Origin: a plasmid
Sequence record: NZ_CP090008.1
DNA: 64,000 bases
Reading direction: 5' to 3' (one strand)
A program made the translations under genes and the position numbers. Below are positions 34,709 through 53,296 of this stretch, one piece after another. The notes beneath the pieces are model-generated. The model was given only the letters and a program-made list of their open reading frames with translations. It did no database searches and had not been told where the DNA came from. Numbering within the stretch: position 1 is the first letter of the stretch; every line of letters starts with the position of its first letter.

Positions 34709-34710
34709 AA

Positions 34711-36449: not shown

Positions 36450-36499
36450 GGCATAGTGCAATCATCTCGTTAAAAAAAGAAAGGAACATAAAATAAAGA

Positions 36500-36658: not shown

Positions 36659-36708
36659 GGCATAGTGCAATCATCTCGTTAAAAAAAGAAAGGAACATAA
36701 AATAAAGA

Positions 36709-36867
36709 ATGAAAGATGAAAAAAATTTGCTCGAAGAGCTTGAAATCGACATTTTGGAGTTGGACGATGTAGAAGGTATTCCAGCAACAGCTGCATCAAG
36801 TGGTAGCGGTGGTAGTAGTACGTGTGGGTCAACCTCATGTTCATCATGTTCATCAAGTTGTGCTTAA
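36709..36867 (+). CDS. RiPP precursor peptide copy 9
   Basis: Identical repeat unit; last of the array. Confidence 0.8.
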   Translation: MKDEKNLLEELEIDILELDDVEGIPATAASSGSGGSSTCGSTSCSSCSSSCA

Positions 36868-36924
36868 GGCATAGTGCAATCATCTCGTTAAAAAAGAAAG
36901 GAACATAAAATAAAAAAGGAAACA

Positions 36925-38215
36925 AGAGAAATAAGTAAAGGACTTAGTTCTGTATTTTACAGGACCAAGTCCTTTTAGTTTTACCTTGATTCGTTAATAA
37001 GAAAAATGGTCTAGCTTGTTCCAATTTACTTATTCGACTTAAATCTCTTTTCGGAATCGTTAAACATCTCAGACTTAAAGATGCCGAATAAGGTTTCCAT
37101 CATACTATTATCTATACTATTTCTCTGTAATATTTTGTTCTAGCATAACTATCACTTGTAACAAGTTCGATGACGTAGAAAGATTATAGGTAATAATTTC
37201 GCTATTAACGTTATCTAAAATTAGCGACAAATAGAGTTTTTAGCTGTTTACTGGAATGGCAAATTCTGTCACATCTGAGTAGCATTCTTTTCATTGATTT
37301 TTGATGTTTCAAATAGGTGATGATTAAGATTCTATGCTTTCTTGCGAACCTATCTTTGGTAGGAATAATACTTCCGTTTACGACGTATTCTAGCGATTAA
37401 GCCAAGAACTTTCATCAAACGTTGGATCTTTTTATGATTTATCACAAAGCCATGTTTTCCCAATTTAAGAGTCATTCGACGATAACCATAATTTCCTTTA
37501 TGCTCATAATAAATTGTCTGAATTTCGTCTTTAAACTATTTCTCTTTGTCAAGCCCCTCCAGTTGCTTCAACTGATAGTAGTAAGTTGAGCGAGGTAAAC
37601 GAGCCGTTTCAAGAAGCAAATCTAGTCGAAATCCTCCTGAAGCCATTTCTCTAATTGTCTCTGCTTTTCTCGCTGTAAGGCTTCGTCCCTGTCTTCTAGC
37701 TCTTTTAACTTTTTTAGGTAAGCCACCTCGGTACGTAAGCGTTCATTCTCCTCTTGGAGTCGCTCTAGTTCTGTCATTTCTTCCCAAGATTTCTTATGTT
37801 TACGTCCCATTTTAGGTGCTCCCCCTCTTGTTTTCTCAACAATAGTATACCCATTTTTCTTGTATTGTGCTGTCCAATTTGTCAATAGCGAAGGATTCGG
37901 TAGAGCATAATCTAAAGATACACTTTTTCGTGAACGACCTTCAAGTAGGACTTTATCAATCATTTCTTGTTTTAGTTCTGGAGAATAGTAACAATTCTTA
38001 CCTTTCTTGACAATTTCTACTCCGTAACGATCAATTAATTTCACCATGTACTTTAGACCAGAAACATCCACATCAAATTTTTTTGAAAGCTGTTTGAAGC
38101 TTTGTCCTTGTTTTCTTAGTTCATAAATCTGAACTTTATCGTCATAACTCAATTTCATAATAAAACACCCCAAAAGTTAGATTTTTTCTGTCTAACTTTT
38201 GGGGTGCAGTTCATC
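36925..38215 (-). mobile_element. IS3-family (IS150-group-like) insertion sequence with intact orfA and truncated or decayed orfB
   Basis: Left inverted repeat 'tgaactgcaccccaaaagttagacagaaaaaatctaacttttgggg' (revcomp of 38165-38215); orfA at 37622-38173. The orfB N-terminus is recognisable (revcomp of 37380-37620 reads ...RLPRSTYYYQLKQLEGLDKEK...) but the distal part (36930-37370) carries no ORF. Confidence 0.75.
37622..38173 (-). CDS. IS3-family transposase OrfA (helix-turn-helix plus leucine zipper)
   Basis: '[30 protein letters not shown]' HTH region; C-terminal coiled coil '[24 protein letters not shown]'. Confidence 0.8.
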
Positions 38216-38246
38216 AGTGTATTAGGAGTCATTAATTTTTAACAAT

Positions 38247-38573
38247 TTCTTTTAAGTTATATTATTTGATTTTAATAGAAGTTGATTAATGTCCTAAAAA
38301 AAATCTTGTCCAATTCCACATAATTGCTACCTCTTTTTATTCTCTTATTTTTTATGGTGTTATTGTATCAAAACTAAATGTTTTAACCCTTTTTTGTCGT
38401 TATCGAACAATAATTTATCAGAATCGGTAAAAATAAAACTTAGATAAGCAAAAAGTGATTAATTTAAGACCTCTTGTGATAATTGTAAAAATGATGCTGT
38501 GGTTGAAGTATAATAATCGTGTCAGTTAGGAGAGCTAATAAATGACCCCAGATAGAATGAAAGGAGTAATAAG
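38247..38573 (+). repeat. Direct repeat B (~327 bp): second copy of the precursor promoter/leader region
   Basis: Near-identical to 34711-35036. Confidence 0.85.
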
Positions 38574-38710
38574 TTGAAGATCGAAAAAATTTACAAGAAG
38601 AGTTTGAAATCGACATTTTGGAGTTAGATGATATAGAAGGAATTCCATTAACAGATGTATCAAGTGGTAATTATTACGTATGGAATAACCTTATGCTCAT
38701 CAAGTTTTGA
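38574..38710 (+). pseudogene. Degenerate tenth precursor gene (frameshifted N-terminus; core replaced by a Cys-free sequence)
   Basis: TTG AAG ATC GAA AAA ATT TAC AAG AAG AGT TTG AAA TCG ACA TTT TGG AGT TAG. The leader-like 'EIDILELDDIEGIP' is recognisable only in another frame, and the C-terminus reads ...SSGNYYVWNNLMLIKF with no Cys. Confidence 0.7.
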
Positions 38711-38816
38711 AAAAAATAGGAAGATGGACGTGCGATAGATAAACAGAAATATATATAATGTTCTTTAATTTTGAACAATTATATTTGTTTTCATAGTCAT
38801 AGAGGAATAAGAACAG

Positions 38817-39593
38817 ATGAGAAATTTAAAATATGTCATCCAAGAGGACAGTATGCTGCTATCATATTTTGGAAAAAGATGTAGGATTGCTTTACCTAAA
38901 AAGCTATCTAAGGATGAAGTTCTACAACTAGTTATTTCAAATATAAATGAAATTTTTGGATTAAAGCAAGAGTTTTCAAAATCACTCACCATGTTTAAGA
39001 TTGGGGAACAAATCTTTCGACTTCCCAAGGAAGCCGAAACTTCCTTAAAACGCTTTTTCCCAGCTATAAGATTACTTTCTGAGGAAGAAGAGTCTTTACT
39101 GAGACAAAATTTGCAGTTTCTAGGAAATTTGAAAGGAACGTTCTACCTTAAAACAGATGGAAAGCAAATGATTCATCAATTAGAAGAAGGAATTTCTATT
39201 TATCACGTGCTGGACCAAGCAGACACTATATTTAAAACACCAACTATTAATCGTCTTCTAGATATTAATATTTTGAAAAATATATATTTTGAGAGTTTAA
39301 TAGACTCATTTGATATCATCAATCGTCAAGGAACATGTCACTTAGAAATTTTTACTAATGAAAAAGAAAAATATAGTTTTGATGATACCAACATGGAGGA
39401 TCTTGTTTTTAAAGCAGTCAAAAAAATAATGGAGTCTAAACTAAGTTATAGATACGTAGGCATAGGGAGAAATAGAGGCGAATGCCTTGAGGATTATTTG
39501 ATGAAACATGGTGCCTCTAGTACTCCTATATTTTGTCAAGATAGTTTATCGAAATTCTTGGGTCTTGTACTTGCTAAGAAGGAGAATCTATGA
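38817..39593 (+). CDS. Hypothetical protein, first gene of the biosynthetic operon (258 aa)
   Basis: ORF in an operon context; overlaps the next gene by 4 nt. Unassigned; a candidate leader-recognition or scaffold protein. Confidence 0.5.
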   Translation: MRNLKYVIQEDSMLLSYFGKRCRIALPKKLSKDEVLQLVISNINEIFGLKQEFSKSLTMFKIGEQIFRLPKEAETSLKRFFPAIRLLSEEEESLLRQNLQFLGNLKGTFYLKTDGKQMIHQLEEGISIYHVLDQADTIFKTPTINRLLDINILKNIYFESLIDSFDIINRQGTCHLEIFTNEKEKYSFDDTNMEDLVFKAVKKIMESKLSYRYVGIGRNRGECLEDYLMKHGASSTPIFCQDSLSKFLGLVLAKKENL

Positions 39594-41320
39594 ATATTCA
39601 GCAATACGTAAAAGTAATACTGTCAAAATCTTGTGAAACACAGCCAATAGAGCTAGTCTACCAAGGGATGAGGTTATATTTTGGAGAACTGGATTATTTT
39701 TACTCAAACAGAGTAGAAGAAGGGATAATCATTTTCTGGGATGAAGACAAACTGATTGTAAGTCCCGTATTTCATAAGAAAGAAAAAAATTGTAGCATCT
39801 GTTTCTTAGAACATCGGAGGAAATTTAAAATAGATGATTCTATTGGAAGAGATGGCGACACGATTGAAATAGAGGATAACAATTTATTTGAAGAAAAATT
39901 TCTTTACGTAATATCTAACCTGATACAGGTCAAATCGCAGCCTCCTTTATTTGATTATTTTATAATTGAGGATTGGAAAATTTCAAAGTGTCAATTCTTT
40001 CGAATTGCTAATTGTGACACCTGTATTTCTAATAGAGAAAGTGTAGAAGAGATCTTGGCTACAGGAAATAGTCGTTGCCAGGCATCCTCTTTGAGAGAAA
40101 AGTTGGGAGATTATTCTGCTTATATTCAATTGGGTAATTCTGATACTGGGATTTTCAATAGAGAGTTAACAACTCTACTAGATAATGGTGTAACGGTTGA
40201 ACTACAATACTCACTTTCTAATAATGAGATTATTTCGGGAATTGGTATTGATAAAAGCTATAAAAGAGCAAAAGCTAAGGCATTTCTAGAAGCGATGGAA
40301 CGTTATAGTGGCATTACCTCCAAGGGGCAGAAACGATATTGGTTCTCCATAGAAGACTTGAGAGGGAAGTCAATCGATTTCCTAAATCCTAACGATTATT
40401 TTCTTGAACTTGAGAAAGAAGAGGTGGCTAGTACGAATAAATTTTTCTGGTTGCCAGCTTACAATTACCAAAGTAATGACTATGCTTTAATACCTGAAGA
40501 TTTTATCATTTATAAAACAGAGAGAACTCCTGAAAGTAAAAAATTAATGAATATGAGTTCAAATGGACATGCAATTGGAAATAGCTATAAAGAAGCGGTT
40601 ATTTTTTCACTTTTTGAAATGTACGAACGAGATCATTTTCTTGTTCATTGGTACGAGAAACAGCCACCTCAAGAAATAAATCAAGATAGCATTCTAGATG
40701 AAGATATTCACCATTATTTAAGTATGATTAAAAACTTAGGGTATGAGGTCTCGATTTATCAAATGCTTTCTAGCAAGGTGATAAGCATTTATTGGACCAT
40801 CGCTAGAGGAAAAAATGGTAGCAAGTTTGCGACTTATTCAACAGCAGGTGCTCATCTTTTTGGAAAGACGGCAATTATTTCTGCATTAAAAGAGCTATAT
40901 TTTGCACTTTATATTTATGATGAAGACGTCGAACATATTAAAGAAAATGGGCGACAAATGCAAGCTCAAGATGTTAAAACTGTGGCAGATCATGCAATTT
41001 ATTATTCAATTGAGGATAGAAGTATACAGTTTAATTTTTTGAAAGGTGTAGAGGTTATCGATTTTGAAATAAAAGATGACTACTCTATCGAGTTAGATTC
41101 CTACTATTCAGATCTATTGGAGTTTACGAATAAGCTATTTGGGAATTTTTATATCGTAGATAATACCCCAAAAGGTTTGAAGGAAATTGGGTTATGCGAG
41201 GTGAAAGTGTTTGTTCCTGGTATGCAAGATATGAATTTTGGTTATGCAAATCAGTACATCAATCACCAGCGGATTCATCTGGACGGTAATCAGGAAGTAC
41301 CAATTCACCCCTTCCCATAA
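39590..41320 (+). CDS. YcaO-domain protein 1 (azoline-forming cyclodehydratase-type; 576 aa)
   Basis: YcaO ATP-binding motifs 'KAFLEAMERYSG' and 'SNGHAIGNSYKEAVIFSLFEMYERD'; C-terminal PxPxP-type tail 'VPIHPFP*'. Confidence 0.75.
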   Translation: MNIQQYVKVILSKSCETQPIELVYQGMRLYFGELDYFYSNRVEEGIIIFWDEDKLIVSPVFHKKEKNCSICFLEHRRKFKIDDSIGRDGDTIEIEDNNLFEEKFLYVISNLIQVKSQPPLFDYFIIEDWKISKCQFFRIANCDTCISNRESVEEILATGNSRCQASSLREKLGDYSAYIQLGNSDTGIFNRELTTLLDNGVTVELQYSLSNNEIISGIGIDKSYKRAKAKAFLEAMERYSGITSKGQKRYWFSIEDLRGKSIDFLNPNDYFLELEKEEVASTNKFFWLPAYNYQSNDYALIPEDFIIYKTERTPESKKLMNMSSNGHAIGNSYKEAVIFSLFEMYERDHFLVHWYEKQPPQEINQDSILDEDIHHYLSMIKNLGYEVSIYQMLSSKVISIYWTIARGKNGSKFATYSTAGAHLFGKTAIISALKELYFALYIYDEDVEHIKENGRQMQAQDVKTVADHAIYYSIEDRSIQFNFLKGVEVIDFEIKDDYSIELDSYYSDLLEFTNKLFGNFYIVDNTPKGLKEIGLCEVKVFVPGMQDMNFGYANQYINHQRIHLDGNQEVPIHPFP

Positions 41321-41345
41321 TCTTATAATTAAAAGAGGATAAAAA

Positions 41346-42188
41346 ATGAATTTAATTGAAATTAACAATTTAAGAAAAAACTATGGCGTAAAAGAAGTCT
41401 TGAAAGGTTTGGATTTGTCCCTAAAGAATGGTCAAGTTTATACATTGCTTGGAAAAAACGGTGCAGGGAAAACAACATTTATCAATATTTTACTTAGACT
41501 AATCAAGGAAGATTCTGGTAGCGTAGTCTCAAACGTTAGCGTAAAAAAAGAAGTTGGTGTAGTCTTTCAGGAAGACTATTTTCCAAAAGAGACAACAGTT
41601 TCGGATTTGATAAAGCTACAAGCTTCATTTTTCCATAAGAAGGTTAATGTTGATGAAGAATTAAAAATAATGGGATTAGAGAAAGAGAAGTTTCAAAAGG
41701 TAGGAACACTTTCGGGAGGACAAAAACGGAAACTTTCGTTCCTATTAGCGACCTTACATGATCCTAAACTTTTGATTTTGGATGAACCTACTGCTGGTAT
41801 GGATTATGATAGTGTAGAAAAGTTTGTTCAACAGATTAAAAAATTAAAGGCAAAGGGAAAAACAATTCTCTTAATTACACACGATTTGTACCAAATTGAA
41901 TCTTTTGCAGATTATATTCTGTTGCTAAATGAAGGTGTATTCGAAGAGAAAATCTCAGTAAATGATATGTTTATGGAATCGTTGTATGAATTTCCCAAAG
42001 AGATGGTTATGAGTGGAGCTGCGAAGGAGCAATTGTTTTATAAGAATGATCAAACTTATGTTTTCAGTAGTCCATACGCACAAAAAATAATTGAACAAAA
42101 TGGTATTAGGAATCCAGAAAACTTTAAGCGTCATAAACAAGTAGTAGATATTTTCAAACGTATTTCATTTGTAGAAGGAGATAAATAA
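41346..42188 (+). CDS. ABC transporter ATP-binding protein
   Basis: Walker A 'GKNGAGKTT', ABC signature 'LSGGQKRK', Walker B 'LLILDEPT'. Confidence 0.85.
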   Translation: MNLIEINNLRKNYGVKEVLKGLDLSLKNGQVYTLLGKNGAGKTTFINILLRLIKEDSGSVVSNVSVKKEVGVVFQEDYFPKETTVSDLIKLQASFFHKKVNVDEELKIMGLEKEKFQKVGTLSGGQKRKLSFLLATLHDPKLLILDEPTAGMDYDSVEKFVQQIKKLKAKGKTILLITHDLYQIESFADYILLLNEGVFEEKISVNDMFMESLYEFPKEMVMSGAAKEQLFYKNDQTYVFSSPYAQKIIEQNGIRNPENFKRHKQVVDIFKRISFVEGDK

Positions 42189-42907
42189 TGATTTCAATTG
42201 TTCAGCAGATAAAAAATAGTTTACAAAATAAGCGATTTATCATTTTTACGATTTTATTCCCAGTGGTATTTTACGTTTTCTTTATAAAGCAACTTAAGTT
42301 TGTAAACACAGATGATAGTGGAATGATTGCATTGTTTTCTGCTATGTTTGGAATCGCAGGAAGTGGCTTGAACACCTTTAGTCAAAAAGTATCGAAAGAC
42401 AAAGACTACTTCCGTATTATGGATAAAATCTCGCCCTATTCTTATGCACATTATATGTTTGATAGTGTATTAGCACAAACGATCTTGAATATTTTAATTT
42501 TGTTCTCAGTTACTTTAGCTGGTGTATTGATTGGTAAATTAAATGTAACAGGGTCTTACTTGTCAATTTCTAGTCTCCTGCTATACTTTGGCTTTTATTA
42601 TATTGTTATTGGCTTCCTATTAGGAACAGTATTTAATGATGAAACACTTGCTTCTGCCTCAATGCCAATCTTTTTCCTATTCATGATGCTTAATATTACT
42701 CCAAATATCATGACAACATTAAAAATGCCAGATATCATTGTAACGATTCAGAAATTTTTCCCGGGCTATTATTATAATGAAGTTTTATTGCATCAGACTC
42801 CAGAAAAGTTCTTACAAGCATGCTTGGTCATTACAATTTATGTTTTTATCGCAGGGACTATCACAGTAATTGTAAATAAATTGTTACAAATTAATAGGAG
42901 AGACTAA
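42188..42907 (+). CDS. ABC-2-type transporter permease (6 TM)
   Basis: Start is translationally coupled to the ATPase stop (ATGA overlap); multiple hydrophobic helices. Confidence 0.65.
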   Translation: MISIVQQIKNSLQNKRFIIFTILFPVVFYVFFIKQLKFVNTDDSGMIALFSAMFGIAGSGLNTFSQKVSKDKDYFRIMDKISPYSYAHYMFDSVLAQTILNILILFSVTLAGVLIGKLNVTGSYLSISSLLLYFGFYYIVIGFLLGTVFNDETLASASMPIFFLFMMLNITPNIMTTLKMPDIIVTIQKFFPGYYYNEVLLHQTPEKFLQACLVITIYVFIAGTITVIVNKLLQINRRD

Positions 42908-44001
42908 TGGTAGAAATGACTTCAGATAGGTTGTTTTCACACTATGAACAATTACATAGGCGACCTGAGCCAGGTTTTTCAGAAGAAAAAACTAAGTGTT
43001 ATATTAAAGACTTCTTAAGTCCATATCCAGAACTAAAAAAAATTTCGGAAGGTAAGATGGGATTGATTTATCAATACGTAGGGCGAAAGGAAGAAAAACA
43101 TCATTATGATTTAGCTTTTCGTGCTGAATTAGATGCTGTAGAAATGGATGAATTCTATGGAACCTACTATCATGGTTGTGGACATGATGCACATACAAGT
43201 ATCCAACTGGAATTAATCACCTATGTTTGTCGTAACAAACCAAAGCTAAATGTACTTTTCATTTTTCAAGCAAGTGAAGAAAAGTATGGTGGTGCAAAAG
43301 AAGTTTGTAAGTTTTTGAAAGACAAAAGGATTACTTTATCGAGAATATATGCTTTACACGTTACCTCGGATTTGTATCCCAATTATGTATCAATCAATAA
43401 GGGAGACATTCTAGCTGCTGGTTTGACTTGCCATTTAAAACTTTCATTAAAGAATAGTGGACATGTCAGTAATCATGGGGACAGTGCAGCGAGTTTATTT
43501 TCTAAATTAGTTTTACTATCAGAAAGCCTAGATGAACTGGATTGTCAGTGTAGAATTACTAACTTTTTCACCAATGGCTCTCATAATGTATCTCCTACAG
43601 AAATAAAATTTAATATTACGTTTAGAGGAAAAAGTAGTGATATTTGCAAGCAGCAACATCAGAAATTTTTAGATCAGTTAAACCTAGAATATCAAAAGGA
43701 AGTTATTATGGATTATCCTTTATTACATAATAATACAATGCTATATGAATGGGTTGAACAAGTATTATCTCAAAGTAAAGTAGTAAAGACTCTAAAAACT
43801 CCATTTTTGTTTTCTTGTGATGATTTTGCCTTCTATGGAAAAGAGCTAGATGTACCGACATGTTATTTCTTTATTGGTGCATATAGTCAGGGTCATCCGA
43901 TTCATTCGAATGAATTTATTACACCGAAGGCTAGCTTATTAAGAGGTTTGTATGTGATGACATTATTGATAGAAAAGGAGAATGAGCGAATTAATGGTTA
44001 A
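42907..44001 (+). CDS. M20-family (M20D-like) amidohydrolase/peptidase
   Basis: Metal-binding signature 'YHGCGHDAHT'. Confidence 0.6.
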   Translation: MVEMTSDRLFSHYEQLHRRPEPGFSEEKTKCYIKDFLSPYPELKKISEGKMGLIYQYVGRKEEKHHYDLAFRAELDAVEMDEFYGTYYHGCGHDAHTSIQLELITYVCRNKPKLNVLFIFQASEEKYGGAKEVCKFLKDKRITLSRIYALHVTSDLYPNYVSINKGDILAAGLTCHLKLSLKNSGHVSNHGDSAASLFSKLVLLSESLDELDCQCRITNFFTNGSHNVSPTEIKFNITFRGKSSDICKQQHQKFLDQLNLEYQKEVIMDYPLLHNNTMLYEWVEQVLSQSKVVKTLKTPFLFSCDDFAFYGKELDVPTCYFFIGAYSQGHPIHSNEFITPKASLLRGLYVMTLLIEKENERING

Positions 44002-46513
44002 AAATGTATATTATAGAAAAACAAATTTTTCGAATGGCGAATTTTCTAAGTTTTTTCAAAAAGAAATATTTGAAAAAATACGAAATAATCAAAAATATCG
44101 CCTCAATTTGTTAAAACAAGTGAGTTCTATTCGAGAATCGGGAATTGAACAATTAAATCAAGTTATTCAGGAATGTCCGGAAGGTAAAGATAAGAAGCAA
44201 TTGTTAAAGTTCTCGCATGACTTCTACAATAATAGAGGAGATTTAGGAAAGAAATTTCAAAAAATAGTATTTCTACTTCCACCAGATTTAGCATCAGAAT
44301 TTGATTCTTATTTTAAAATGAAAGAACAAATTTTGATGATTGATAATAGAATTGAAGAACAGGTAGATCAACAATATTTAAATGAGAAACAAATGATGCT
44401 ACAGGGACTTCGTGATAATCTAGATTTTGTTCAGAACACAAAGATGATTGGGCAGACTCTCTATCAAAAGTTAGAAAAGCTACTCAAAACAGATGTTAAA
44501 AATCATAATAAGAAGCAACGGCAAATGGATGGTTTTTTGTACAATTATTATACTCGTATTGCTACAAAGACAAGTCCCTTGGGGTTATTAGGCACAACAA
44601 GTGTTTATGGGCAAGAAGAATTTCATTTAGATAGAGAGATTTTTATGTCGGTGAACTCTTCAATCATTTTAAAGATATTTGATAGGCTTTATCAAAACCC
44701 AAAAAATCAGCCAGTTTTGAACTTCAAACTAAATGAGACACTAATTTTAAAAGAGAATAAGTATTACGTAACGGTTTTCAATGATATCAAAGGAAAAAGT
44801 TTATACCGTAATCGTCAGGAATTGGTTACACTCCCTGAAAGTAAAATCTTAAATGAGATTTTACAGCTTTTCAAAGGAAAAGGGCAGTTATCGGGACGTG
44901 ACATCTTAGATAAACTCTCTCAAAAAGGGCAAGAAAATCTTCTTACAAAATTGTTGGAGAATTGTATTTTACTTCCAGCTGATCAATTAACTATTGAAGG
45001 TAAGCAAAGTATGTCAGAAGCGTTTCTGCAGAAATTAAAGGGTATTTCTTCGGTTATGTTTTCAAATGAAATTGAGATTTTCGAAAGAATAGTTGCATTT
45101 GAGCAAGAAGAGTTTTCTTGGGAGATATATGATCGATTGACGGAAGAAGTTCATAATCTTGTTCTGTATTATGGCATTGAAGGATTTGACAAATCATCGT
45201 ATGTTTCGATAGATAAGCTTGCTTCTAATACTGAGAATGATTTAGAAAAAGAGGTTCAAGTTGTAAAAGAACAACAGAAGTGTTTCAATGATCTATCAAA
45301 ATTTATTTCTATTTTTGATATTTCAACACGCAGTAAGTATTTAGCCTATGAGATGCTTCGAAAAAAATATGGTGGAGAATTCAAGCCTCGAAACGCTCGA
45401 GAAATGAGTAAATTTTTGCGAGATCTATCAACTACGCTTTTTCAAAGAGATGGCTATTGGATGGAATCATTTGGCTATTTAGGAGAAAAGTACCAGCATA
45501 AAATTGATAATCAACTCTTGAAGTTGAAGAAGGAAATTCTTGAGCAATTGCTTGGTCAAGATTCGGGGGATGGATCAGAACTATTGATTTCAACCGAATT
45601 GTTGAATAGTTCAACGAAACAATTAGAGAAACTTGTTGGACAAAGCCATAAATCTCGTGCTTATTTTTTACAAGTTAGTCCAAGTAATCAAATAGTCTTT
45701 AATCATATTTATAAAGGCTATGGAGTCTACCGTAGACGGTTTAATCATTATCTTCCAACAGATCAAGAAAGTTATAGATTAGATGGAGCTTTAGTAGATA
45801 TTCCAATGACATTTGGTTTCAATGCAAATATTCGAGAAAGTACAGATAAGACCTTATCCTTACCATTAGGTGAACGAGCTTTTGCCAGCTCTGAACAATT
45901 GAACTGGTTAGATTTAGGTTTTCGACTTTCAAAACAATCAAAGGAAATCGAAGTGTTCGAAAAGGCAACGGGTGCTATTATTTATCCACACTTCTTAGGA
46001 AGTTTAATAACAGTCGCCCTCCCTTCATTAGTTGCGGTTTTTAATTCAATTACTCTCAATGATTCTATTTATTTTGATTTTGGAGAATTGTTACTCAGAC
46101 AGAAAATAAAAAATCATTCTCAGGAAAAAGTAGTGGTCCCAAGACTTTGCTTTGAAAAAGTTGATTTTATATTATCTCGAAAAAAATGGTATCTTGCTTG
46201 TGAAAAATTACATACCATTTTACAGGAAGATACGTCAATGGGTCAAAAATGGTTAGAAGTTATCGAGTATTTTGAAGAAGAAGAGTTGCCATTATCTTTC
46301 TTTGTAAAAGACTTTTTCGAGTCTTATAATCAGGACTCGGAGTTACTAAAAACAAAACCACTATACATCAATTTTGAATCTTTTTTAAGCTTTAAAGCAT
46401 TTGTAGGTTTGGTGAAGAAGAAGGATAGAATTTTAATCGAAGAGGTCTTGCCAGAATGTACTGATACGGAAACAGATATGATTACAGAGTTAATTGTTGA
46501 AACAAATGATTGA
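43982..46513 (+). CDS. LanB-type dehydratase, N-terminal (glutamylation) domain protein - split-LanB component (843 aa)
   Basis: Assigned by size, operon position directly before a ~360-aa partner, and co-occurrence with YcaO and SagB-type genes. No short diagnostic motif was read, so this needs HMM confirmation (Lant_dehydr_N). Confidence 0.45.
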   Translation: MSELMVKNVYYRKTNFSNGEFSKFFQKEIFEKIRNNQKYRLNLLKQVSSIRESGIEQLNQVIQECPEGKDKKQLLKFSHDFYNNRGDLGKKFQKIVFLLPPDLASEFDSYFKMKEQILMIDNRIEEQVDQQYLNEKQMMLQGLRDNLDFVQNTKMIGQTLYQKLEKLLKTDVKNHNKKQRQMDGFLYNYYTRIATKTSPLGLLGTTSVYGQEEFHLDREIFMSVNSSIILKIFDRLYQNPKNQPVLNFKLNETLILKENKYYVTVFNDIKGKSLYRNRQELVTLPESKILNEILQLFKGKGQLSGRDILDKLSQKGQENLLTKLLENCILLPADQLTIEGKQSMSEAFLQKLKGISSVMFSNEIEIFERIVAFEQEEFSWEIYDRLTEEVHNLVLYYGIEGFDKSSYVSIDKLASNTENDLEKEVQVVKEQQKCFNDLSKFISIFDISTRSKYLAYEMLRKKYGGEFKPRNAREMSKFLRDLSTTLFQRDGYWMESFGYLGEKYQHKIDNQLLKLKKEILEQLLGQDSGDGSELLISTELLNSSTKQLEKLVGQSHKSRAYFLQVSPSNQIVFNHIYKGYGVYRRRFNHYLPTDQESYRLDGALVDIPMTFGFNANIRESTDKTLSLPLGERAFASSEQLNWLDLGFRLSKQSKEIEVFEKATGAIIYPHFLGSLITVALPSLVAVFNSITLNDSIYFDFGELLLRQKIKNHSQEKVVVPRLCFEKVDFILSRKKWYLACEKLHTILQEDTSMGQKWLEVIEYFEEEELPLSFFVKDFFESYNQDSELLKTKPLYINFESFLSFKAFVGLVKKKDRILIEEVLPECTDTETDMITELIVETND

Positions 46514-46530
46514 GAAAAGAGGAGGAGATT

Positions 46531-47607
46531 ATGGTATATAAATTATCTGTATTTATCAATGATTTAGCTTTTTCAAACAGTCTAATCATTAAGATTTATA
46601 GTTTTTTAAATAATAAAGCAATTAAAGAAATTTGGGTGAAGAAATCAATTCAGCGTGGCCACCATCTTGAATTGTTTTCTCTCAATAAAGAGTATTTGAA
46701 GACAATGGAAGATTTTATTGTTGGAGAACTGTCAAGTTATTCCCCAGTTAATGTTCCTGAAATGAAATTAAAGAAGCAAATCATGAGTGTTGCAGCTGCA
46801 GAAAACACGGAGGCTGACTTAAATATTCAACCGGATGGGACAATTCTGTTTGAAGAAGTTGAAGAACTATATCAAGATAAAGTTAGGTTAAATTCCTATG
46901 AGACTGAGTTGGTTGTGGAAAAGAAAAAGATGGAGTTGATTCTCTATCTTGAAAGTATAGGATTCTTCAACGAGCCTGAAAATCAGCAAAATATTTTATT
47001 GGTTAAACTATTCTTAAATTTAGGGTTACTTTTTAATAACAATTTAAAAATGGGTTATCTATCTATGAAGTCAAATATTCTATTCTTTAACTTACAACTG
47101 GAGAAGTTGAAGGGTACAATGTCGCCGGAGAAGTATAAACGGTATCATCACTTAGTTAATTTTCTAGATGAGACAGAACAGAGTTATATCAATGAGAATA
47201 TTGAAATCTTTCTGAATGAAAATAAAAGTTCATTCTATAAGCAATTTGTAGAAGAACTTTATCAATTTTTTAGTGATGAATTTGAAAAAGGAAACCTTTA
47301 TTATGAAAACCTAAGTGATGCAGAGAGTTTTGTTCAGAAATCACGAAAGAATGGTCAGATAACAGATTTTCACAAAAAATTCTTTACGAATCAAGCTTTT
47401 CTTTCCCATCATGCTTCGGAACCCTTTGTGATTTATCGTTATACAGTTGATGTTCTTTATCAAATTATGCCGTTGTTAAACGTTAATCCGCTTCGAAAAC
47501 AGAAAATTACAAAAATGGTAAGTGATAAGGTTGAGACAGGCTATGATATGACCTGGGAAGACAGTTATGCTGACATGCAAGAATTATTTAACAAGAAGGT
47601 ACAATAA
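46531..47607 (+). CDS. Putative LanB C-terminal (SpaB_C-like elimination) domain protein - split-LanB partner (~358 aa)
   Basis: Size and position match the arrangement in thiopeptide and goadsporin clusters; RBS 'agaggagga' before ATG 46531. By inference only. Confidence 0.35.
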   Translation: MVYKLSVFINDLAFSNSLIIKIYSFLNNKAIKEIWVKKSIQRGHHLELFSLNKEYLKTMEDFIVGELSSYSPVNVPEMKLKKQIMSVAAAENTEADLNIQPDGTILFEEVEELYQDKVRLNSYETELVVEKKKMELILYLESIGFFNEPENQQNILLVKLFLNLGLLFNNNLKMGYLSMKSNILFFNLQLEKLKGTMSPEKYKRYHHLVNFLDETEQSYINENIEIFLNENKSSFYKQFVEELYQFFSDEFEKGNLYYENLSDAESFVQKSRKNGQITDFHKKFFTNQAFLSHHASEPFVIYRYTVDVLYQIMPLLNVNPLRKQKITKMVSDKVETGYDMTWEDSYADMQELFNKKVQ

Positions 47608-48135
47608 ATGCATATTTTACTTGAAAATGGAGAAAAATATATTTTTGATGGAGTCTACTATAGAAAATTAAATTCAAAGACTAGGCACTTATATTTTCAT
47701 CAGTTAAAACATAACCATTCCATTTGTTTAGTTAAGAGTCAGCGTGTGAAGTGTCCGTCTCTTACTTTTGAATTGGTGGATGTGGACAATATTGGTGATC
47801 TTCCTGTATTGGATAAAAATGATTGTAAGAAAATAGTTGAATTCTTTGCCAAAAACATGACAAAAACTTTTGATAAAGTGATGGAAGTTAGTCAAACAAT
47901 GAATCAGCTTGGATCTCCGACTTTTTCAGATGGTATCGACACAACAGTAGGAAAATCAATTGTAAAAGTATTAGCTGCACAGTTATTACGCACCTACTTG
48001 AGAGAGCAGGGGTGGATAGTACGAGTAGATTTTGAAAATTACCCTAGTAGAAAGGGACAGTTTTTAAAAGTAGATCTCCTCGAAGGCAAAGATATTTATT
48101 GTGGGGTAGTAAATGAATACGAACTTAATTACTAA
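47608..48135 (+). CDS. hypothetical protein (175 aa) within the biosynthetic operon
   Basis: Start is 1 nt after the previous stop; overlaps the next gene by 23 nt. Confidence 0.45.
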   Translation: MHILLENGEKYIFDGVYYRKLNSKTRHLYFHQLKHNHSICLVKSQRVKCPSLTFELVDVDNIGDLPVLDKNDCKKIVEFFAKNMTKTFDKVMEVSQTMNQLGSPTFSDGIDTTVGKSIVKVLAAQLLRTYLREQGWIVRVDFENYPSRKGQFLKVDLLEGKDIYCGVVNEYELNY

Positions 48136-49792
48136 TGACTCTTTTTTTCATAAAAAGTATTTAGAAAGTCTGGAAGAAGGACGTAAATATGCTATTTTGG
48201 TAGTAGATCACCTCTTCTTTTTCAAGAAAGAGGAAGGATTCCTTGAGGATTTTTTATATACAGTTTCTTTATACAATAGGACTAAAACAAAAAATGTATT
48301 AGCTAGCATGTTCTCAACAAATTACCAAAATAGCGAGTTGGAGATAGAAAAAGCAAAACATCTTATGGACAGGCTAGTCTTTAAAAAGGGACAGATAGGA
48401 GTACTGTATCTAGAAAATCAAGCCCTCTCCTATGTTTGTATTAAGAAAAAAAGAACATCTCAAACCAAAAGTAAAATGGAGCTTGGGACTTTATTAGATA
48501 AGGTCACTATTGGTGAATCGGATGGCTTTCGAGAAAAAACTGTGAGTGAACTGTCAAAATATGCACAAGGTTTTTTAGACAAAACGGTAGCCTATCGTAA
48601 ATTTTTCGATTTAGATTCAGATTATTTTCCAGGAGTGGGCATTGAATATGCTGTAACAGACAAATATACAGAATGTGGTTATGGTCGTTCTGCATCTTTT
48701 CATGATTCTACTAATATTGCTCTCCTAGAAGCGATTGAAAGATATTCCTCCCTTTTTTACCCCTATCAAAATAAAGATATTTATGCTAAGTTCTCAGACT
48801 TGGACAATGCTATTCACCCCAAGAATTTCATTCTCCCATCTTCTGAAAAAAATCCTTTTATGCAGTACCATGATAATTTGGAGATTTATTGGACAGAGGC
48901 GGAATCTCTGAGAGATAAGAAAACAGTACTAGTGCCTGAACAATTAGCAGTATATGGAGATTCTTTCTTTAGAGATAAAAAGAAACAGCATCGATTCATA
49001 TATGATAGTTCAAATGGTGTTTCTTTAGGAGGATCATTTGAGGAAGCTGTATTATATGGACTATTGGAGTTAATTGAGAGGGATAATTTTTTAATGACAT
49101 GGTATGGTAGGATTCCAATCAATGAAGTTAGACTGGAATCTCTGGGCTTGTCTGAAGATACTTTAAATACAGTTCATCGTGCTCAACGAGACGGTTTTGA
49201 TGTCAAAGTTTACGATATTTCAATGGAGTTAGGAGTTCCTTCTTTTTGGGCCTTAGTAAGAAGTTTGAAAGGGCATAAAATGTATTCTTATACAGCTGCA
49301 GGGAGCAACCCAATCCCTCATAAAGCAGCGGAGTCAGCATTGCTAGAAGCTCTGGTTGGAATTAAAATCCATGATAATATAAACGCTGAATTTGGGACAA
49401 CGGTTCCGACTGAGGTTATTGAGATGGAGGATCACGTCAACTATTATTCAAGTGATCAGCATAAAGGTGCCTATGATTTTCTGCAAGATTCCCATGTAAC
49501 TGACTTATCGACAGAAAATTACATTAAAGCCTTTAATACGAAGACTTATTTGAAAAAACTAATTAATAAAGTATTAAAAGAATATGAAGATATCTATGTC
49601 GTTAATTTAACTTCAAAAGAAATGGAGAAACTAGGAATCTATACTGTGAAAGTTATTGTTCCAGGACTTCTTCCAATGACTTTTGGTGTACAAAATGAAA
49701 GAATATCTGAACCTCGTATCAATAGAGAAAGGAGTAGGAGAGGTCTTGAGGAAGTGAAACAGATTAGTTGCTATCCTCACCCTTTCCCTTAA
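48113..49792 (+). CDS. YcaO-domain protein 2 (559 aa)
   Basis: 'ALLEAIERYSSLFY' and 'SSNGVSLGGSFEEAVLYGLLELIERDNFLMTWYG'; C-terminal 'SCYPHPFP*'. Confidence 0.75.
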   Translation: MNTNLITNDSFFHKKYLESLEEGRKYAILVVDHLFFFKKEEGFLEDFLYTVSLYNRTKTKNVLASMFSTNYQNSELEIEKAKHLMDRLVFKKGQIGVLYLENQALSYVCIKKKRTSQTKSKMELGTLLDKVTIGESDGFREKTVSELSKYAQGFLDKTVAYRKFFDLDSDYFPGVGIEYAVTDKYTECGYGRSASFHDSTNIALLEAIERYSSLFYPYQNKDIYAKFSDLDNAIHPKNFILPSSEKNPFMQYHDNLEIYWTEAESLRDKKTVLVPEQLAVYGDSFFRDKKKQHRFIYDSSNGVSLGGSFEEAVLYGLLELIERDNFLMTWYGRIPINEVRLESLGLSEDTLNTVHRAQRDGFDVKVYDISMELGVPSFWALVRSLKGHKMYSYTAAGSNPIPHKAAESALLEALVGIKIHDNINAEFGTTVPTEVIEMEDHVNYYSSDQHKGAYDFLQDSHVTDLSTENYIKAFNTKTYLKKLINKVLKEYEDIYVVNLTSKEMEKLGIYTVKVIVPGLLPMTFGVQNERISEPRINRERSRRGLEEVKQISCYPHPFP

Positions 49793-49798
49793 TATAAT

Positions 49799-50707
49799 AT
49801 GAAAGAAACTGACAAATGGTTGTCCTACCATATCTTTTGCCATAATCTTCTTCATCATGACCGTATCATTTGTAAGTTAAATAAATGGACCTCTGAGAAA
49901 CATCTTTACCCTTATTTCTTCATTCGCTACTGGGAAGGGGGGCCTCATATCCGTTTTAGGATAAAGAGGAAAGATACCATTCGGGATGACTATTACAATA
50001 CTCTCGTTGACCTCTTAGAATCGGAATTATCTGATGAGAGTATCATTCTGACAAAAGAAGAGTATTATCAAGGTCATAAGTTAGATGGAGAGAAAATTCC
50101 TATTGAGGAATTGCCTTGGTATGAGAATAACACTATTGTCCCGATTACCTATGTTCGAGAGAATGAGAGGTACGGGGGAAAAGAAGCAATTGAGCATGCG
50201 GAATATGTTTTTTACCGCTCTAGTCAATTAGTCTCAACTATGTTAGAAGGTTGTATGAACTGCCACATGATGATTCGGATGCTATTTTATGTCCATATTT
50301 ATGAGAAAGTAAATGCAGCAATTAAAGAGTGTGGTATAAACTTTGATTTCCCCCAATTCTATGCCAATTGTTTCTCGTATTGGAATGAACTTTATGACTT
50401 GAAAGATGCAGAATATATAAGAGACATTGCTAATGCTATCAAACACTCATTTGAGGACAAAGAAGAAAAAATAAATACTGTCTTTTCATTTATTCAGCCA
50501 CAAATTCAGAACAATTTTATTGACTCTTTAGTAGAGTATTTAAAAAATGTTTCTCAATTAAAGGGAAACAAGATGATGCGTTCTGTCCTGTTTTCTCAAA
50601 TGCATATGTTCGCGAACCGTCTCGGAATTCCGATTGAATATGAATGTGCCATATACAGTTATTATAACCAGAAAAATACAAATTTAACTTGCCAGAAGGG
50701 AGCATAA
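49799..50707 (+). CDS. SpaB_C-sized protein (302 aa); candidate second elimination enzyme or [4+2] pyridine synthase
   Basis: Context and size only. Confidence 0.3.
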   Translation: MKETDKWLSYHIFCHNLLHHDRIICKLNKWTSEKHLYPYFFIRYWEGGPHIRFRIKRKDTIRDDYYNTLVDLLESELSDESIILTKEEYYQGHKLDGEKIPIEELPWYENNTIVPITYVRENERYGGKEAIEHAEYVFYRSSQLVSTMLEGCMNCHMMIRMLFYVHIYEKVNAAIKECGINFDFPQFYANCFSYWNELYDLKDAEYIRDIANAIKHSFEDKEEKINTVFSFIQPQIQNNFIDSLVEYLKNVSQLKGNKMMRSVLFSQMHMFANRLGIPIEYECAIYSYYNQKNTNLTCQKGA

Positions 50708-51520
50708 ATGAAAAAAGTACTGCTTAATGAAGAAATGTATTATACGCCTAACTTTGATTATGATCAATTAAAGAATCGTAGAAAGAAGTTTGCAACCAAT
50801 CGTATCAATTGGTTTATGAACAATAGTCCTAAACAAGACTATCAATTTCCTAAAGACAACCCAACAGATTTTGATTCCAACAAACAGTATAGTTACTATC
50901 AAGAAAATAATGCAGATGATCCGATTCGAAAATTATTTGAAAATCGACGCTCAACGCTTTTAAATTCTTTTGATGGGAAATGGAGTCGTGAAGAACTATT
51001 TAATTTATTGACAATAGCTGTTGGACCCAATCCACGAAAAAGATTTTATCATGGAGAGGAATTAATTTTAAGAAACTATCCATCTGGTGGAGCTTTGTTT
51101 CCAGTAAAACTTTATCTTTTTATCAAGGATGTGGAAGGTATGGAACCGGGTGTTTACTATATTAGTTCTCAGTTGAAAAAATTGATTAAAGTTGAAAGCA
51201 AGGAAAATCTGGTCTGGGACAATCTCTTTCCAATGACTCTTTACAAATTAGACGCATTGAGCAATTCAACAGAAAAAATTAGTTTTGCTGTATTCATGGT
51301 TGTTGATTTTAAGGAATCTTTTAAAAAATATGGAGAACTTTCCGAACGTTTAGCTTTCTTTGAGGCTGGACATGTTGCCCAAAATCTTCAGTTGGTTTCG
51401 AGTCATCTCAACAAAAAATCACTACCCATTTGTGGTCTCTTTCCAGAAGAAGTTGAAAAACAAATTAATATCCAGAACAACGATAGCCAATATTGTGTTT
51501 ACGGTATCCTATTTGGATAA
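50708..51520 (+). CDS. SagB/McbC-type FMN-dependent dehydrogenase (nitroreductase fold)
   Basis: 'FENRRSTLLNSF' (RRS motif) and 'YPSGGALFPV' (PSxGxxxP motif); 270 aa; start 1 nt after the previous stop. Confidence 0.7.
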   Translation: MKKVLLNEEMYYTPNFDYDQLKNRRKKFATNRINWFMNNSPKQDYQFPKDNPTDFDSNKQYSYYQENNADDPIRKLFENRRSTLLNSFDGKWSREELFNLLTIAVGPNPRKRFYHGEELILRNYPSGGALFPVKLYLFIKDVEGMEPGVYYISSQLKKLIKVESKENLVWDNLFPMTLYKLDALSNSTEKISFAVFMVVDFKESFKKYGELSERLAFFEAGHVAQNLQLVSSHLNKKSLPICGLFPEEVEKQINIQNNDSQYCVYGILFG

Positions 51521-51537
51521 AAGCAAGGAGAATTGTT

Positions 51538-52284
51538 ATGCTAATAAATCCATTCCTAACAGTTGAAAATCATAACGGTGTTTATTATTTTTCTGAAAAA
51601 TACGGTAAAACAAAAAAGCCTTTTCTAACTTTACAATCAAAAAGAGAACTGGCTGATTTGATAAATGATAGAGAGCTAAATAAAAAAATTAGTAAGCATC
51701 TTAATTATTCATTTGCAATTCCAGAACATCATAAGGAACTTTTTTCTATATTGGAAGAAAATGTAGCGTTTTGCTCTGAGCTTGTTAACAAAACAATGCT
51801 TGCTAAGTTCTTAATGTACAGATTACATTCTGCGACAATTGAATTCTACAATTACAGTGATTTGAATTTGCAGCATTTAAAAAAGATGTTAGAGTTGGAA
51901 AATGGGACTGAGAGTCGAGTACAAGTTGTTATCTATGACAAAAACAGTCATATTCAGGACTTCCAGCCTACATATAATCAAGGATTGCTTCTATTTTTTG
52001 AAGTATGTGGTGGAAAATTACGTGGGATAGGTCCTTTTGTAGAAGTATCAGCAGATGGCACTAAAATGAGCCATTTTCAGGAAGAGAAAAACGTAGAGAG
52101 AAAAGTCGAGAAAGAAGATAGTTACTGGAATCGATCAATTGAGGAAGTTGTCTTAGATACAGTACTTTCAGCTATTACAGATTATTTTTCAGATTATATT
52201 ACTGTCTCTTCACCTTTTATGTACCGTAGAGCTATCTTGAATGAAGATACAGTTTGTCTTTGTGAAGCATTTTCTCGTCAATGA
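51538..52284 (+). CDS. hypothetical protein, last gene of the operon (~249 aa)
   Basis: RBS 'aaggag' before ATG 51538; the track ORF from 51493 probably overruns the true start. Confidence 0.45.
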   Translation: MLINPFLTVENHNGVYYFSEKYGKTKKPFLTLQSKRELADLINDRELNKKISKHLNYSFAIPEHHKELFSILEENVAFCSELVNKTMLAKFLMYRLHSATIEFYNYSDLNLQHLKKMLELENGTESRVQVVIYDKNSHIQDFQPTYNQGLLLFFEVCGGKLRGIGPFVEVSADGTKMSHFQEEKNVERKVEKEDSYWNRSIEEVVLDTVLSAITDYFSDYITVSSPFMYRRAILNEDTVCLCEAFSRQ

Positions 52285-52589
52285 GTTTCTTAAGACAAGA
52301 TTTATAAATTGTTTGGACTGAGGGTTTTCTCGGTTCTTTTTTTATGGTAAGTTCAAAAATCAGCTGAGCACTCTAGAACCATCATAAAGTATATGAGTAT
52401 GGAGGAGCTCAGGAGTAAGATTATTGAGGAAAAGACATGATTTAATAGGATTGAAAAACAGTCAGACCAACTAATTTCGTAAGCTTTTATACGACTTGTG
52501 CAAAGTGAAGGCTGATAGATTTTGTAGCATTTTTCCATGGACTAAAATATCCAATTCAGCAGTCTTAAAATTCCTTTGTCAAACCAATA

Positions 52590-52735
52590 TCCTTTCTAGA
52601 CTGCTACCTTTATAAATGCTCTCTATTTCGTAACGATCAATTAATCACGACATGAACTTTGTCCTCATAAGTTAATTTAATGAGAAAAGCACCCCAAAAG
52701 TTAGATTTATTTGTCTAACTTTTGGGGTGCAGTTC
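52590..52735 (-). mobile_element. IS3-family left-end fragment (inverted repeat plus first ~25 codons of orfA)
   Basis: 'caccccaaaagttagatttatttgtctaacttttggggtgcagttca' at 52686-52733 and 'ttcgtaacgatcaattaat...gaactttgtcctcataagttaatttaatgag' match the 38000-38215 end of the IS3 element. Confidence 0.7.
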
Positions 52736-52791
52736 AAAAATTATTTGCACACGGAGAAGATAATATTATTTTAGTAACTAATTTTTTATGA

Positions 52792-53166
52792 TTATTCGCT
52801 CTTTATTTCTATGAAATCATCGATGTATCCTTTTATTAATTCTAGTAGTGTTGTATAGCTGTAATTTGAAGATAAGTCAATAATTCCTAGAAGTTCAAGG
52901 TGATTTTCGAAAATATAATTATAGTCAACATCCGACGTTAGTAGTACGATTTGTGCAGAGTTCTCATTGTTTCGAATAGCTTTCACCATGGTTCTGTAAT
53001 TGCTTTTTTGAGTAATTATGATAAAATATAGACTAAGAAATTCATGAGAGATTTTAATAGTTTTTAATGGGCTATCCATCTTGCATTGAATTTTTTTCTG
53101 TTTACAGTAATGTTTGATGGACAGGTATAGTCTTAGCGACGTTAATAACTGCCGAAATAATTTCAA
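52792..53166 (-). CDS. hypothetical protein (124 aa); weak resemblance to a receiver-domain fragment
   Basis: ORF; '...AQIVLLTSDVDYNYIFENHLELLGIIDL' is loosely similar to 'ATIVFVTTHSEFMPITFKYKVAALDFVDK' of the adjacent response regulator. Confidence 0.3.
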   Translation of the reverse strand: MKLFRQLLTSLRLYLSIKHYCKQKKIQCKMDSPLKTIKISHEFLSLYFIIITQKSNYRTMVKAIRNNENSAQIVLLTSDVDYNYIFENHLELLGIIDLSSNYSYTTLLELIKGYIDDFIEIKSE

Positions 53167-53296
53167 TATATATTCCTTCTATTCTATGAGATTTGACTTT
53201 ATTATAATATTTTAGAAGAGGAAATATTGGGTTTATCAAAAACGGTCTGTATATTGTCATTAACAGTCATCATTTTTAATAGTTTAGGAGAAAAGG

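Follow-up and report, generated by a model that had tools for sequence, protein, structure and literature searches.

Why would one thiopeptide-type gene cluster encode two YcaO proteins? This question is raised by an operon at positions 38817-52284 on the plus strand of a plasmid stretch of 64,000 nucleotides (nt) from sequence record NZ_CP090008.1, hereafter the window, from whose first letter all coordinates are counted. Our analysis indicates that the locus is a real and complete plasmid-borne cluster for a thiopeptide-type peptide that is synthesized ribosomally and modified post-translationally (RiPP) and, as judged from its sequence, apparently intact. Regarding the two YcaO proteins, here named YcaO-1 and YcaO-2, we consider it reasonably probable that they belong to two azoline-forming modules acting on different residues, and that a pyridine is then closed by the protein g7.

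The operon comprises 12 intact open reading frames (ORFs) with overlapping or abutting junctions, encoding in order proteins of 258, 576, 280, 239, 364, 843, 365, 175, 559, 302, 270 and 263 amino acids (aa). The initial annotation of the window had recognized this co-directional, tightly spaced layout and counted 13 genes; the ORF listing contains 12, as does the RefSeq annotation of a near-identical plasmid, pIKMIN-B501 of Streptococcus salivarius DB-B5. All 12 genes equal their orthologues in length. The YcaO genes and the small genes next to them are the following:

38817-39593, plus strand: g1, 258 aa, candidate TclI-like partner of YcaO-1 (from its position next to YcaO-1)
39590-41320, plus strand: YcaO-1, 576 aa, divergent paralogue (PF02624, E 6e-43)
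47608-48135, plus strand: g8, 175 aa, candidate partner of YcaO-2 (from its position next to YcaO-2)
48113-49792, plus strand: YcaO-2, 559 aa, canonical thiazole/oxazole-modified microcin (TOMM)/SagD-type cyclodehydratase, TclJ-like (PF02624, E 8e-66; TIGR03604 above cut-off)

The presence of two YcaO proteins with complete motif sets and HPFP ends, as initially proposed, was borne out by the PF02624 matches and the translations. Both contain the EAxER and SSNG..G..EA..E..ERD motifs, which we took as the ATP/Mg2+-binding motifs. In an alignment of ten sequences representing both paralogue clades, residues E234, E237, R238, S323-G326, E335, E343, E346, R347 and D348 and the terminal HPFP are invariant, so that YcaO-1 has the conserved YcaO motifs as well as the proline-rich C-terminus. 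The HPFP end is also found in the validated TclJ, in the lactocillin YcaO and in the YcaO of a plasmid cluster from Latilactobacillus curvatus and L. sakei (NZ_AP024686.1). The solved relatives of both proteins are the azoline-forming MusD, TruD and LynD, to whose YcaO domains YcaO-1 was matched. With the TIGR03604 model YcaO-2 scored 246 bits and YcaO-1 166 bits, the latter below the curated cut-off of 219.25. YcaO-2 together with the SagB-type dehydrogenase of the operon represents the pairing of an azoline-forming YcaO with a flavin mononucleotide (FMN)-dependent azoline dehydrogenase. It had been suggested in the initial annotation that one YcaO might be non-catalytic or serve only as a RiPP recognition element (RRE). 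Given that the motif residues and HPFP are invariant in both clades, this appears unlikely. Nothing points to the second chemistry that had been offered as the other option, and thiopeptide clusters with two YcaOs are already known elsewhere.

To place the two proteins relative to each other, we compared them with their homologues. By neighbour joining, YcaO-2 falls together with the only YcaO of the L. curvatus cluster (34% identity; 30% to TclJ) and YcaO-1 forms a deep clade of its own, while the subtrees of the two paralogues have the same topology. Homologues of YcaO-1 make up a small family of 14 clusters, and on contigs carrying members that are 50%, 36% and 34% identical the gene order is the same from the precursor through the dehydrogenase. 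We rejected YcaO-1 as a recent duplicate of YcaO-2, since they share 23-27% identity and fall into separate deep clades. Because the clades are deep and separate, the subtrees congruent and the gene order kept in relatives, the two proteins are ancient co-inherited paralogues, and both look catalytically competent. As the order is kept in relatives down to 34-36% (YcaO-1) and 41-42% (YcaO-2) identity, we conclude from sequence conservation that both are retained by selection.

Both YcaOs have N-terminal extensions of about 190-220 aa, which are normal for Firmicute thiopeptide YcaOs, since TclJ has 563 aa. These N-terminal regions gave no credible Pfam or NCBIfam match at E-values up to 10. 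The N-terminus of YcaO-1 (39590-40255) contains two CxxC motifs 74 residues apart, a spacing like that of the ThiF/MoeB zinc site. A zinc-binding CxxC...CxxC remnant of an E1-like domain was rejected as a feature of the family, as the cysteines occur only in its streptococcal subset and are absent from the relatives L002 and L003.

Next to each YcaO stands a candidate partner. The g1 gene overlaps the start of YcaO-1 (ATGA), an adjacency kept in all five relatives, and g8 overlaps the start of YcaO-2, again kept in all relatives. On plasmid pBac115 tclI (242 aa) abuts tclJ (563 aa), and in the lactocillin cluster a gene for a 229-aa protein abuts that for a 585-aa YcaO. By analogy, g1/YcaO-1 and g8/YcaO-2 would each repeat the tclI-tclJ arrangement, and it is this synteny that makes g1 and g8 candidate partners. 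The remaining orphan of the operon follows the dehydrogenase gene:

51538-52284, plus strand: g12, 248 aa (longest ORF from 51493, 263 aa), orphan family; the start at 51538 is the probable one

For g1, g8 and g12 no Pfam or NCBIfam family, TfuA included, was matched even at E-values up to 10. This agrees with the initial annotation, which had left proteins of 258, 175 and about 249 aa unassigned; no hidden Markov model (HMM) places the 258-, 175- and 263-aa products. Neither YcaO gene has a TfuA-like neighbour as in the YcaO-TfuA thioamidation pair. Searches of the Protein Data Bank with profiles of the three families found nothing, and an all-against-all hhalign comparison of g1, g8, g12, the TclI family, Lcur_226 (the 226-aa protein of the L. 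curvatus cluster) and the YcaO N-terminal regions gave nothing significant. The AlphaFold2 model of g1 reached a mean confidence score (pLDDT) of 62 with no secure fold match, and that of g8, at 42, was unusable. As a calibration, the validated TclI matched TIGR03693 (ocin_ThiF_like) with an E-value of only 2.4e-4, and its 229-aa lactocillin counterpart did not match at all. The missing HMM match is therefore uninformative, because TclI itself is barely detectable. An E1-like or ocin-ThiF-like partner is indeed not recognizable, as initially stated, but this is not the atypical trait it was taken for: the tclI-tclJ layout occurs here twice. An exhaustive search of 1.84 billion proteins with g12 yielded 13 representative clusters, all unannotated, and a homologue in the L. 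curvatus cluster, Lcur_252 (E 4e-4), holds the same place after the dehydrogenase.

The class of the product is indicated by the other modification enzymes of the operon:

43982-46513, plus strand: split-LanB glutamylation protein, TclK/TbtB-like, 843 aa (PF04738, TbtB profile, blastp)
46510-47607, plus strand: g7, candidate [4+2] pyridine synthase of the TclM/TbtD class, 365 aa (weak match to NF045556)
49799-50707, plus strand: split-LanB glutamate-elimination protein (g10), TclL-like, 302 aa (PF14028, TIGR03891, hhalign)
50708-51520, plus strand: SagB/McbC-type azoline dehydrogenase, 270 aa (TIGR03605, 92 bits, cut-off 78.4; PF00881)

The 843-aa protein matched PF04738 slightly under threshold (E 1.9e-6). 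A profile built from five sequences matched the thiomuracin glutamylation enzyme TbtB (6EC7) collinearly with an E-value of 5e-4, and blastp retrieved the lactocillin LanB-N (1e-14) and TclK (1e-4), which supports its initial assignment as part of a split dehydratase. Its second half had been sought in the protein of about 360 aa, and the protein of about 300 aa, correctly seen as SpaB_C-sized, had been proposed as a pyridine synthase. These two roles have to be exchanged. The 302-aa protein matched PF14028 (Lant_dehydr_C; E 1.7e-35) and TIGR03891 (85.9 bits, cut-off 48.45), aligned with the TclL family with an hhalign probability of 99.7% (E 1.5e-25), and its profile matched the MibB elimination domain. 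By homology it is the elimination half, and the operon thus encodes both parts of a split LanB. The 365-aa g7 is the likely pyridine-synthase candidate because of a weak match to NF045556 (E 8e-6, 25 bits, cut-off 325), in which residues 245-352 align with model positions 245-351. The same C-terminal part of this model is matched collinearly by TclM (1.5e-16, 60 bits), by the lactocillin 261-aa protein (3.9e-10) and by Lcur_307, a 307-aa protein of the L. curvatus cluster (1.9e-6). The best hhalign partner of g7 is the TclM family, again weakly (E 0.0055, probability 6.7%), and PbtD was matched with an E-value of 2.2. The dehydrogenase contains the motifs RRS and PSGGALFP, in agreement with the initial annotation. 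Pfam and NCBIfam searches found no leader protease or C39 peptidase domain encoded in the cluster, which fits removal of the leader during pyridine formation.

Where are the precursors? They were initially sought with the operon, as a Ser/Cys-rich core was quoted for it. Instead, a tandem array lies upstream, and the whole arrangement reads as follows:

34716-35036, plus strand: promoter/5' region, copy 1, ahead of the precursor array (about 98% identical over about 320 nt to 38236-38573)
35037-36867, plus strand: nine tandem precursor genes of 52 aa each, 209-bp period, MKDEKNLLEELEIDILELDDVEGIPATAASSGSGGSSTCGSTSCSSCSSSCA (tblastn, Tandem Repeats Finder, precursor HMMs)
37300-38213, minus strand: insertion sequence (IS) remnant of the IS3 family between array and operon (HTH_Tnp_1 and NF033516 matches)
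38236-38573, plus strand: promoter/5' region, copy 2, ahead of the operon (alignment to copy 1)
38574-38710, plus strand: degenerate tenth precursor, pseudogene (tblastn, alignment)
52605-52736, minus strand: second IS3-end remnant, in direct orientation to 37999-38213 (repeat families D1 and D2, 75-77% identity)

Using the two intact 52-aa precursors of Streptococcus sp. UMB0029 (L001), which lie directly upstream of its first cluster gene, as tblastn queries, we located precursor copies at 35037, 35246, 35455, 35664, 35873, 36082, 36291, 36500 and 36709. Tandem Repeats Finder reported a period of 209, 9.0 copies and 99% matches. The precursor scored above the cut-offs of NF033400 (43.2 bits, cut-off 30), TIGR03892 (40.6, cut-off 25) and PF19409 (46.9, cut-off 23.5). 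The array thus provides nine intact copies of a thiopeptide-family precursor with a Ser/Thr/Cys-rich C-terminal core; the core is rich in Ser and Cys and ends in SSSCA. The first precursor is preceded by an aaaggag ribosome-binding site, copy 1 starts with TTG, and in the leader of copy 3 an E is replaced by K. As the 209-bp period is not divisible by three, the copies occupy all three frames and spurious 96-aa ORFs appear on the minus strand. Across the contigs of the family the core is near-invariant, SGSG..STCGS(T/S)SCSSCSSSCA, which points to strong selection on the product.

A precursor within 38817-52284 was considered and rejected, the only sequence nearby being the frameshifted remnant at 38574-38710. 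This pseudogene shares its ribosome-binding site and TTG start with array copy 1, but its frame is shifted by the loss of 1 nt from an A-run and its core is broken by an 8-nt deletion; tblastn matched its leader alone (E 1.7e-10). No Ser/Cys-rich ORF was found in the gap between the IS remnant and the operon or downstream of the operon. The IS3 remnant includes a 183-aa ORF (37622-38173) matching HTH_Tnp_1 and the NF033516 IS3 transposase and 87% identical to annotated IS3 transposases of other Streptococcus plasmids; the transposase body appears truncated. IS3-family ends at 37999-38213 and 52605-52736 flank the biosynthetic operon in the same orientation, which suggests past IS-mediated shuffling of the locus. 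The duplicated promoter layout looks like the outcome of an IS-associated rearrangement that gave each unit its own copy. Short direct repeats, as possible LytTR sites, were sought in the duplicated promoter region and none was found. By eye, the stretch 34560-34640 resembles the 3' region of IS3 orfA.

Taken together, a precursor passing the thiopeptide models, a split LanB, two SpaB_C-like proteins, a YcaO and a SagB dehydrogenase support the thiopeptide class. A thiopeptide or goadsporin-type peptide had been predicted initially; the class stands, and the evidence from precursor models and enzyme set favours a thiopeptide over a goadsporin-type peptide.

The remaining genes concern trimming, transport and regulation:

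41346-42188, plus strand: ABC transporter ATPase, 280 aa (PF00005, E 8e-28)
42188-42907, plus strand: ABC-2 permease, 239 aa (PF01061, 28.9 bits, cut-off 26.9)
42907-44001, plus strand: M20/M25/M40 metallohydrolase, 364 aa (PF01546, E 6e-21)
53297-54028, plus strand: AgrA-like LytTR response regulator (PF04397, E 2e-21; NF046049 AgrA, E 6e-42)
54065-55378, plus strand: AgrC-like histidine kinase (PF14501, E 2e-18; NF046015 AgrC, E 2e-42)

Domain searches confirmed the ATPase, the permease and the M20 hydrolase named initially. The models nearest to the hydrolase are the TIGR01891 amidohydrolase and the CpsA carboxypeptidase, and an orthologue is present within the L. curvatus cluster. A pair of AgrA/AgrC-like proteins also follows the cluster in L001 and pIKMIN-B501, and an agrB/kinase/LytTR set adjoins that of L. 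curvatus; the pair is the probable regulator of the cluster. Upstream of the locus, two ORFs (DEDD_Tnp_IS110 and Transposase_20; 32018-33185) make up a split IS110-family transposase, which is followed by two unassigned ORFs (33250-34547) and then by the precursor array. L001 also has a split IS110 transposase, as well as MobC/NikA genes, near its cluster. Elsewhere in the window there is a 1838-aa ORF at 2144-7660 on the minus strand, and the region 29192-31778 encodes a replication-relaxation protein and a weak TraF-like match. The latter two and the similarity to pIKMIN-B501 point to a megaplasmid, not a chromosome, as the origin of the window.

How does the locus compare with known systems? 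Positions 34500-53300 share 96.5% nucleotide identity over 93% with the S. salivarius DB-B5 megaplasmid pIKMIN-B501 (NZ_CP054154.1), the only such record among 72,556 plasmids, and YcaO-2 is 99.5% identical to the protein encoded there. The 12 genes, the tandem arrangement of the precursors, a gap at the IS site and the response regulator and kinase recur on pIKMIN-B501, but it has about seven precursor copies compared with nine here. The published description of its locus goes no further than "thiazolyl peptide bacteriocin locus", as flagged by BAGEL4, without structure, activity or gene-function analysis. The architecture, initially considered unusual for a Streptococcus-like host, had therefore already been flagged on a megaplasmid of S. 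salivarius, and the host is no surprise. Thiopeptide loci of streptococci were also flagged earlier in silico, in S. pneumoniae (ThioFinder) and S. henryi. Searching the literature for the core sequence returned no paper; a paper on dehydrazole was set aside, as the architecture is unrelated. The locus is known to annotation and its product is chemically uncharacterised.

YcaO-2 of L001 is 76% identical to the one studied here. Outside the family, the closest relative is the uncharacterised L. curvatus/L. sakei plasmid cluster (positions 9743-20610, L006), whose YcaO also occurs on L. sakei and other L. curvatus plasmids. It contains orthologues of g7, YcaO-2, the elimination protein, the dehydrogenase, g12, the M20 hydrolase, LanB-N and the ABC pair, and has a similar core, SSGSSSCKVTSTCGSSSCCA. 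In contrast to the streptococcal cluster, it encodes only one YcaO, the g1+YcaO-1 module being absent, its blocks are reordered, and the 226-aa protein upstream of its YcaO has no detectable similarity to g8. The micrococcin P1/thiocillin cluster (tclE, I, J, K, L, M and N; pBac115) shares the TclI gene abutting that of an HPFP-ended TclJ of about 560 aa, a split TclK/TclL, TclM and a dehydrogenase, and clusters of the thiocillin type share tandem identical precursors. Enzyme identity is 26-30%. Unlike here, there is one YcaO, a Cys-rich core (SCTTCVCTCSCCTT), an L11 immunity gene, short-chain dehydrogenase/reductase (SDR) tailoring enzymes and no M20 hydrolase. The streptococcal locus contains neither an L11 nor an EF-Tu immunity gene.

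The core motif recalls lactazole (laz, Streptomyces lactacystinaeus), whose core is likewise Ser-rich and Cys-poor with an SSSCA identical to the C-terminus found here (PMC7210931). However, the lactazole cluster is actinobacterial and encodes five enzymes, among them LazE as the only YcaO, LazD as a large, separate partner and a dehydrogenase-elimination fusion, and its core has a C-terminal tail beyond the Ala. In gene content, the locus resembles berninamycin (berG1/berG2, berE1/berE2), a thiopeptide cluster with two YcaO cyclodehydratases (PMC9290621). That cluster differs in being actinobacterial, in having two dehydrogenases and in the placement of its YcaOs, which are adjacent rather than in separate modules. 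A thiopeptide cluster on a plasmid of Actinomyces oris, another oral bacterium (NZ_CP116225.1, 9488-23427, L009), has four tandem precursors and two YcaOs of 591 and 595 aa (33% identical), the second followed by a 192-aa protein with no Pfam match. These two copies are each other's closest relatives, which points to an independent duplication in A. oris. Two YcaOs in a thiopeptide cluster therefore have precedent in berninamycin and on the A. oris plasmid. Distinctive of the streptococcal cluster are the deep-branching YcaO with its own orphan partner, three orphans in all, one dehydrogenase, the M20 hydrolase and the nine-fold array with a duplicated promoter region. On the unannotated Lactobacillus johnsonii plasmid CP024782.1 (L010), a 524-aa YcaO ending in HPYA and nearby ORFs of 829, 353, 382 and 418 aa resemble a further RiPP cluster.

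Starting from gene content, motif conservation, homologies and co-inheritance, we infer the division of labour, the pyridine step, the role of the M20 hydrolase and the regulation as follows. The nine precursor genes would supply the 52-aa peptide with its core ending in SSSCA. The TclI/TclJ-like modules g1+YcaO-1 and g8+YcaO-2 would both be ATP-dependent cyclodehydratases that form azolines, each at other residues. In the most likely case, one module would convert Cys to thiazolines and the other Ser/Thr to oxazolines, or each would serve its own stretch of the core. The single SagB dehydrogenase may then oxidise the azolines to azoles, and the split LanB, by glutamylation (843 aa) and elimination (302 aa), would turn remaining Ser/Thr into dehydro-residues. 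Two dehydroalanines (Dha) would be joined by g7 into a pyridine, closing the macrocycle and releasing the leader, which would account for the missing leader protease gene. The M20 hydrolase may trim one end, probably the C-terminal Ala, the ABC pair would export the product and/or protect the producer, and the AgrA/AgrC-like system probably drives the duplicated promoter before array and operon. In lactazole, macrocyclisation requires SSSCA, with Ser10 (Dha), Ser11 (oxazole), Ser12 (Dha, pyridine), Cys13 (thiazole) and Ala14 (PMC7210931). Since the invariant C-terminal SSSCA here equals this motif, it suggests, by analogy, that the ring is lactazole-like and includes one oxazole or more, and it would give a reason for a cyclodehydratase directed at Ser.

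Several observations weigh against this pathway. A single YcaO serves a similar four-Cys core in the sibling L. curvatus cluster, and lactazole gains its thiazoles and an oxazole with one YcaO (PMC7210931), so that a second YcaO is not obviously needed. There is one dehydrogenase here, while berninamycin couples two YcaOs with two dehydrogenases (PMC9290621). The match of g7 to its class is weak (25 bits; hhalign probability 6.7%), homology of g1, g8 or g12 with TclI, with one another or with solved structures is not detectable, and an IS remnant sits between precursors and enzyme genes. Some of these points could be accommodated if YcaO-1 and g1 carried out a different reaction on the same peptide (amidine or macroamidine formation, thioamidation or another ATP-activated change of an amide) and YcaO-2 made all azolines. 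The score of YcaO-1 under the SagD-family cut-off, its deep clade, the orphan g1 as a possible new type of partner, the lone dehydrogenase and the single-YcaO sibling would all fit. Still, we regard this as rather improbable, as YcaO-1 keeps the HPFP of the azoline-forming TclJ and every conserved motif residue, its best solved relatives form azolines, and neither a TfuA nor a sulfur-transfer gene was found by Pfam and NCBIfam. We see a slim chance that g1+YcaO-1 is a new kind of YcaO system, in which a deep-branching YcaO and an orphan partner, for which neither RRE nor E1 ancestry is detectable, introduce a modification new to thiopeptides, for example a dedicated set of Ser/Thr oxazolines, an amidine or another backbone activation, into a lactazole-like product of a human oral commensal in probiotic use. 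Were the pyridine of this product built from the first Ser of the conserved STCG... and a serine of SSSCA, the macrocycle would comprise about 14 residues and exceed the largest natural ring listed, the 35-membered one of berninamycin (PMC7210931).

A YcaO, a dehydrogenase and a split LanB also occur together in goadsporin-type clusters. With the similarity of g7 to TbtD, PbtD and TclM being weak, the product could be a linear azole/dehydroalanine peptide of that type, g7 having another function and a host protease removing the leader. This is quite improbable in our view: the precursor passes thiopeptide-precursor models, its core has the lactazole macrocyclisation motif at the end, the cluster encodes neither a leader protease nor a C39 peptidase domain, and a second SpaB_C-related protein beside the TclL orthologue is a hallmark of thiopeptides. 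The low score of g7 is put into perspective by the validated TclM, which is also far under the NF045556 cut-off and shares with g7 the matched C-terminal part of the model. PMC7210931 mentions goadsporin as a distant relative. Finally, the cluster might be silent or decaying, with the precursors uncoupled from the enzymes by IS insertion and one YcaO module redundant. The IS3 remnant between array and operon, the second IS3 end downstream and the dead tenth precursor could be read in this way, and no product has been reported for DB-B5. Yet all genes, 12 for enzymes and nine for precursors, are intact, the promoter region is kept before both units at about 98% identity, the layout recurs in pIKMIN-B501 at 96.5% identity, and both YcaOs are conserved across deep divergence; we find decay very improbable. 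The thiopeptide cluster with two azoline-forming modules hence remains the reading we prefer.

Among oral commensals S. salivarius is a dominant one, and commercial probiotics are based on the bacteriocins of its megaplasmids. In the literature searched, no thiopeptide of S. salivarius is described. The core is near-invariant while the enzymes fall to about 35% identity, which argues for a conserved molecular target. The cluster proteins recur with up to about 190 member sequences per cluster in public sequence collections, so that the peptide may matter ecologically in the microbiomes of humans and animals. The one-YcaO cluster of L. curvatus and the two-YcaO cluster described here constitute a natural experiment on how YcaO proteins share their work and on the three orphan proteins.

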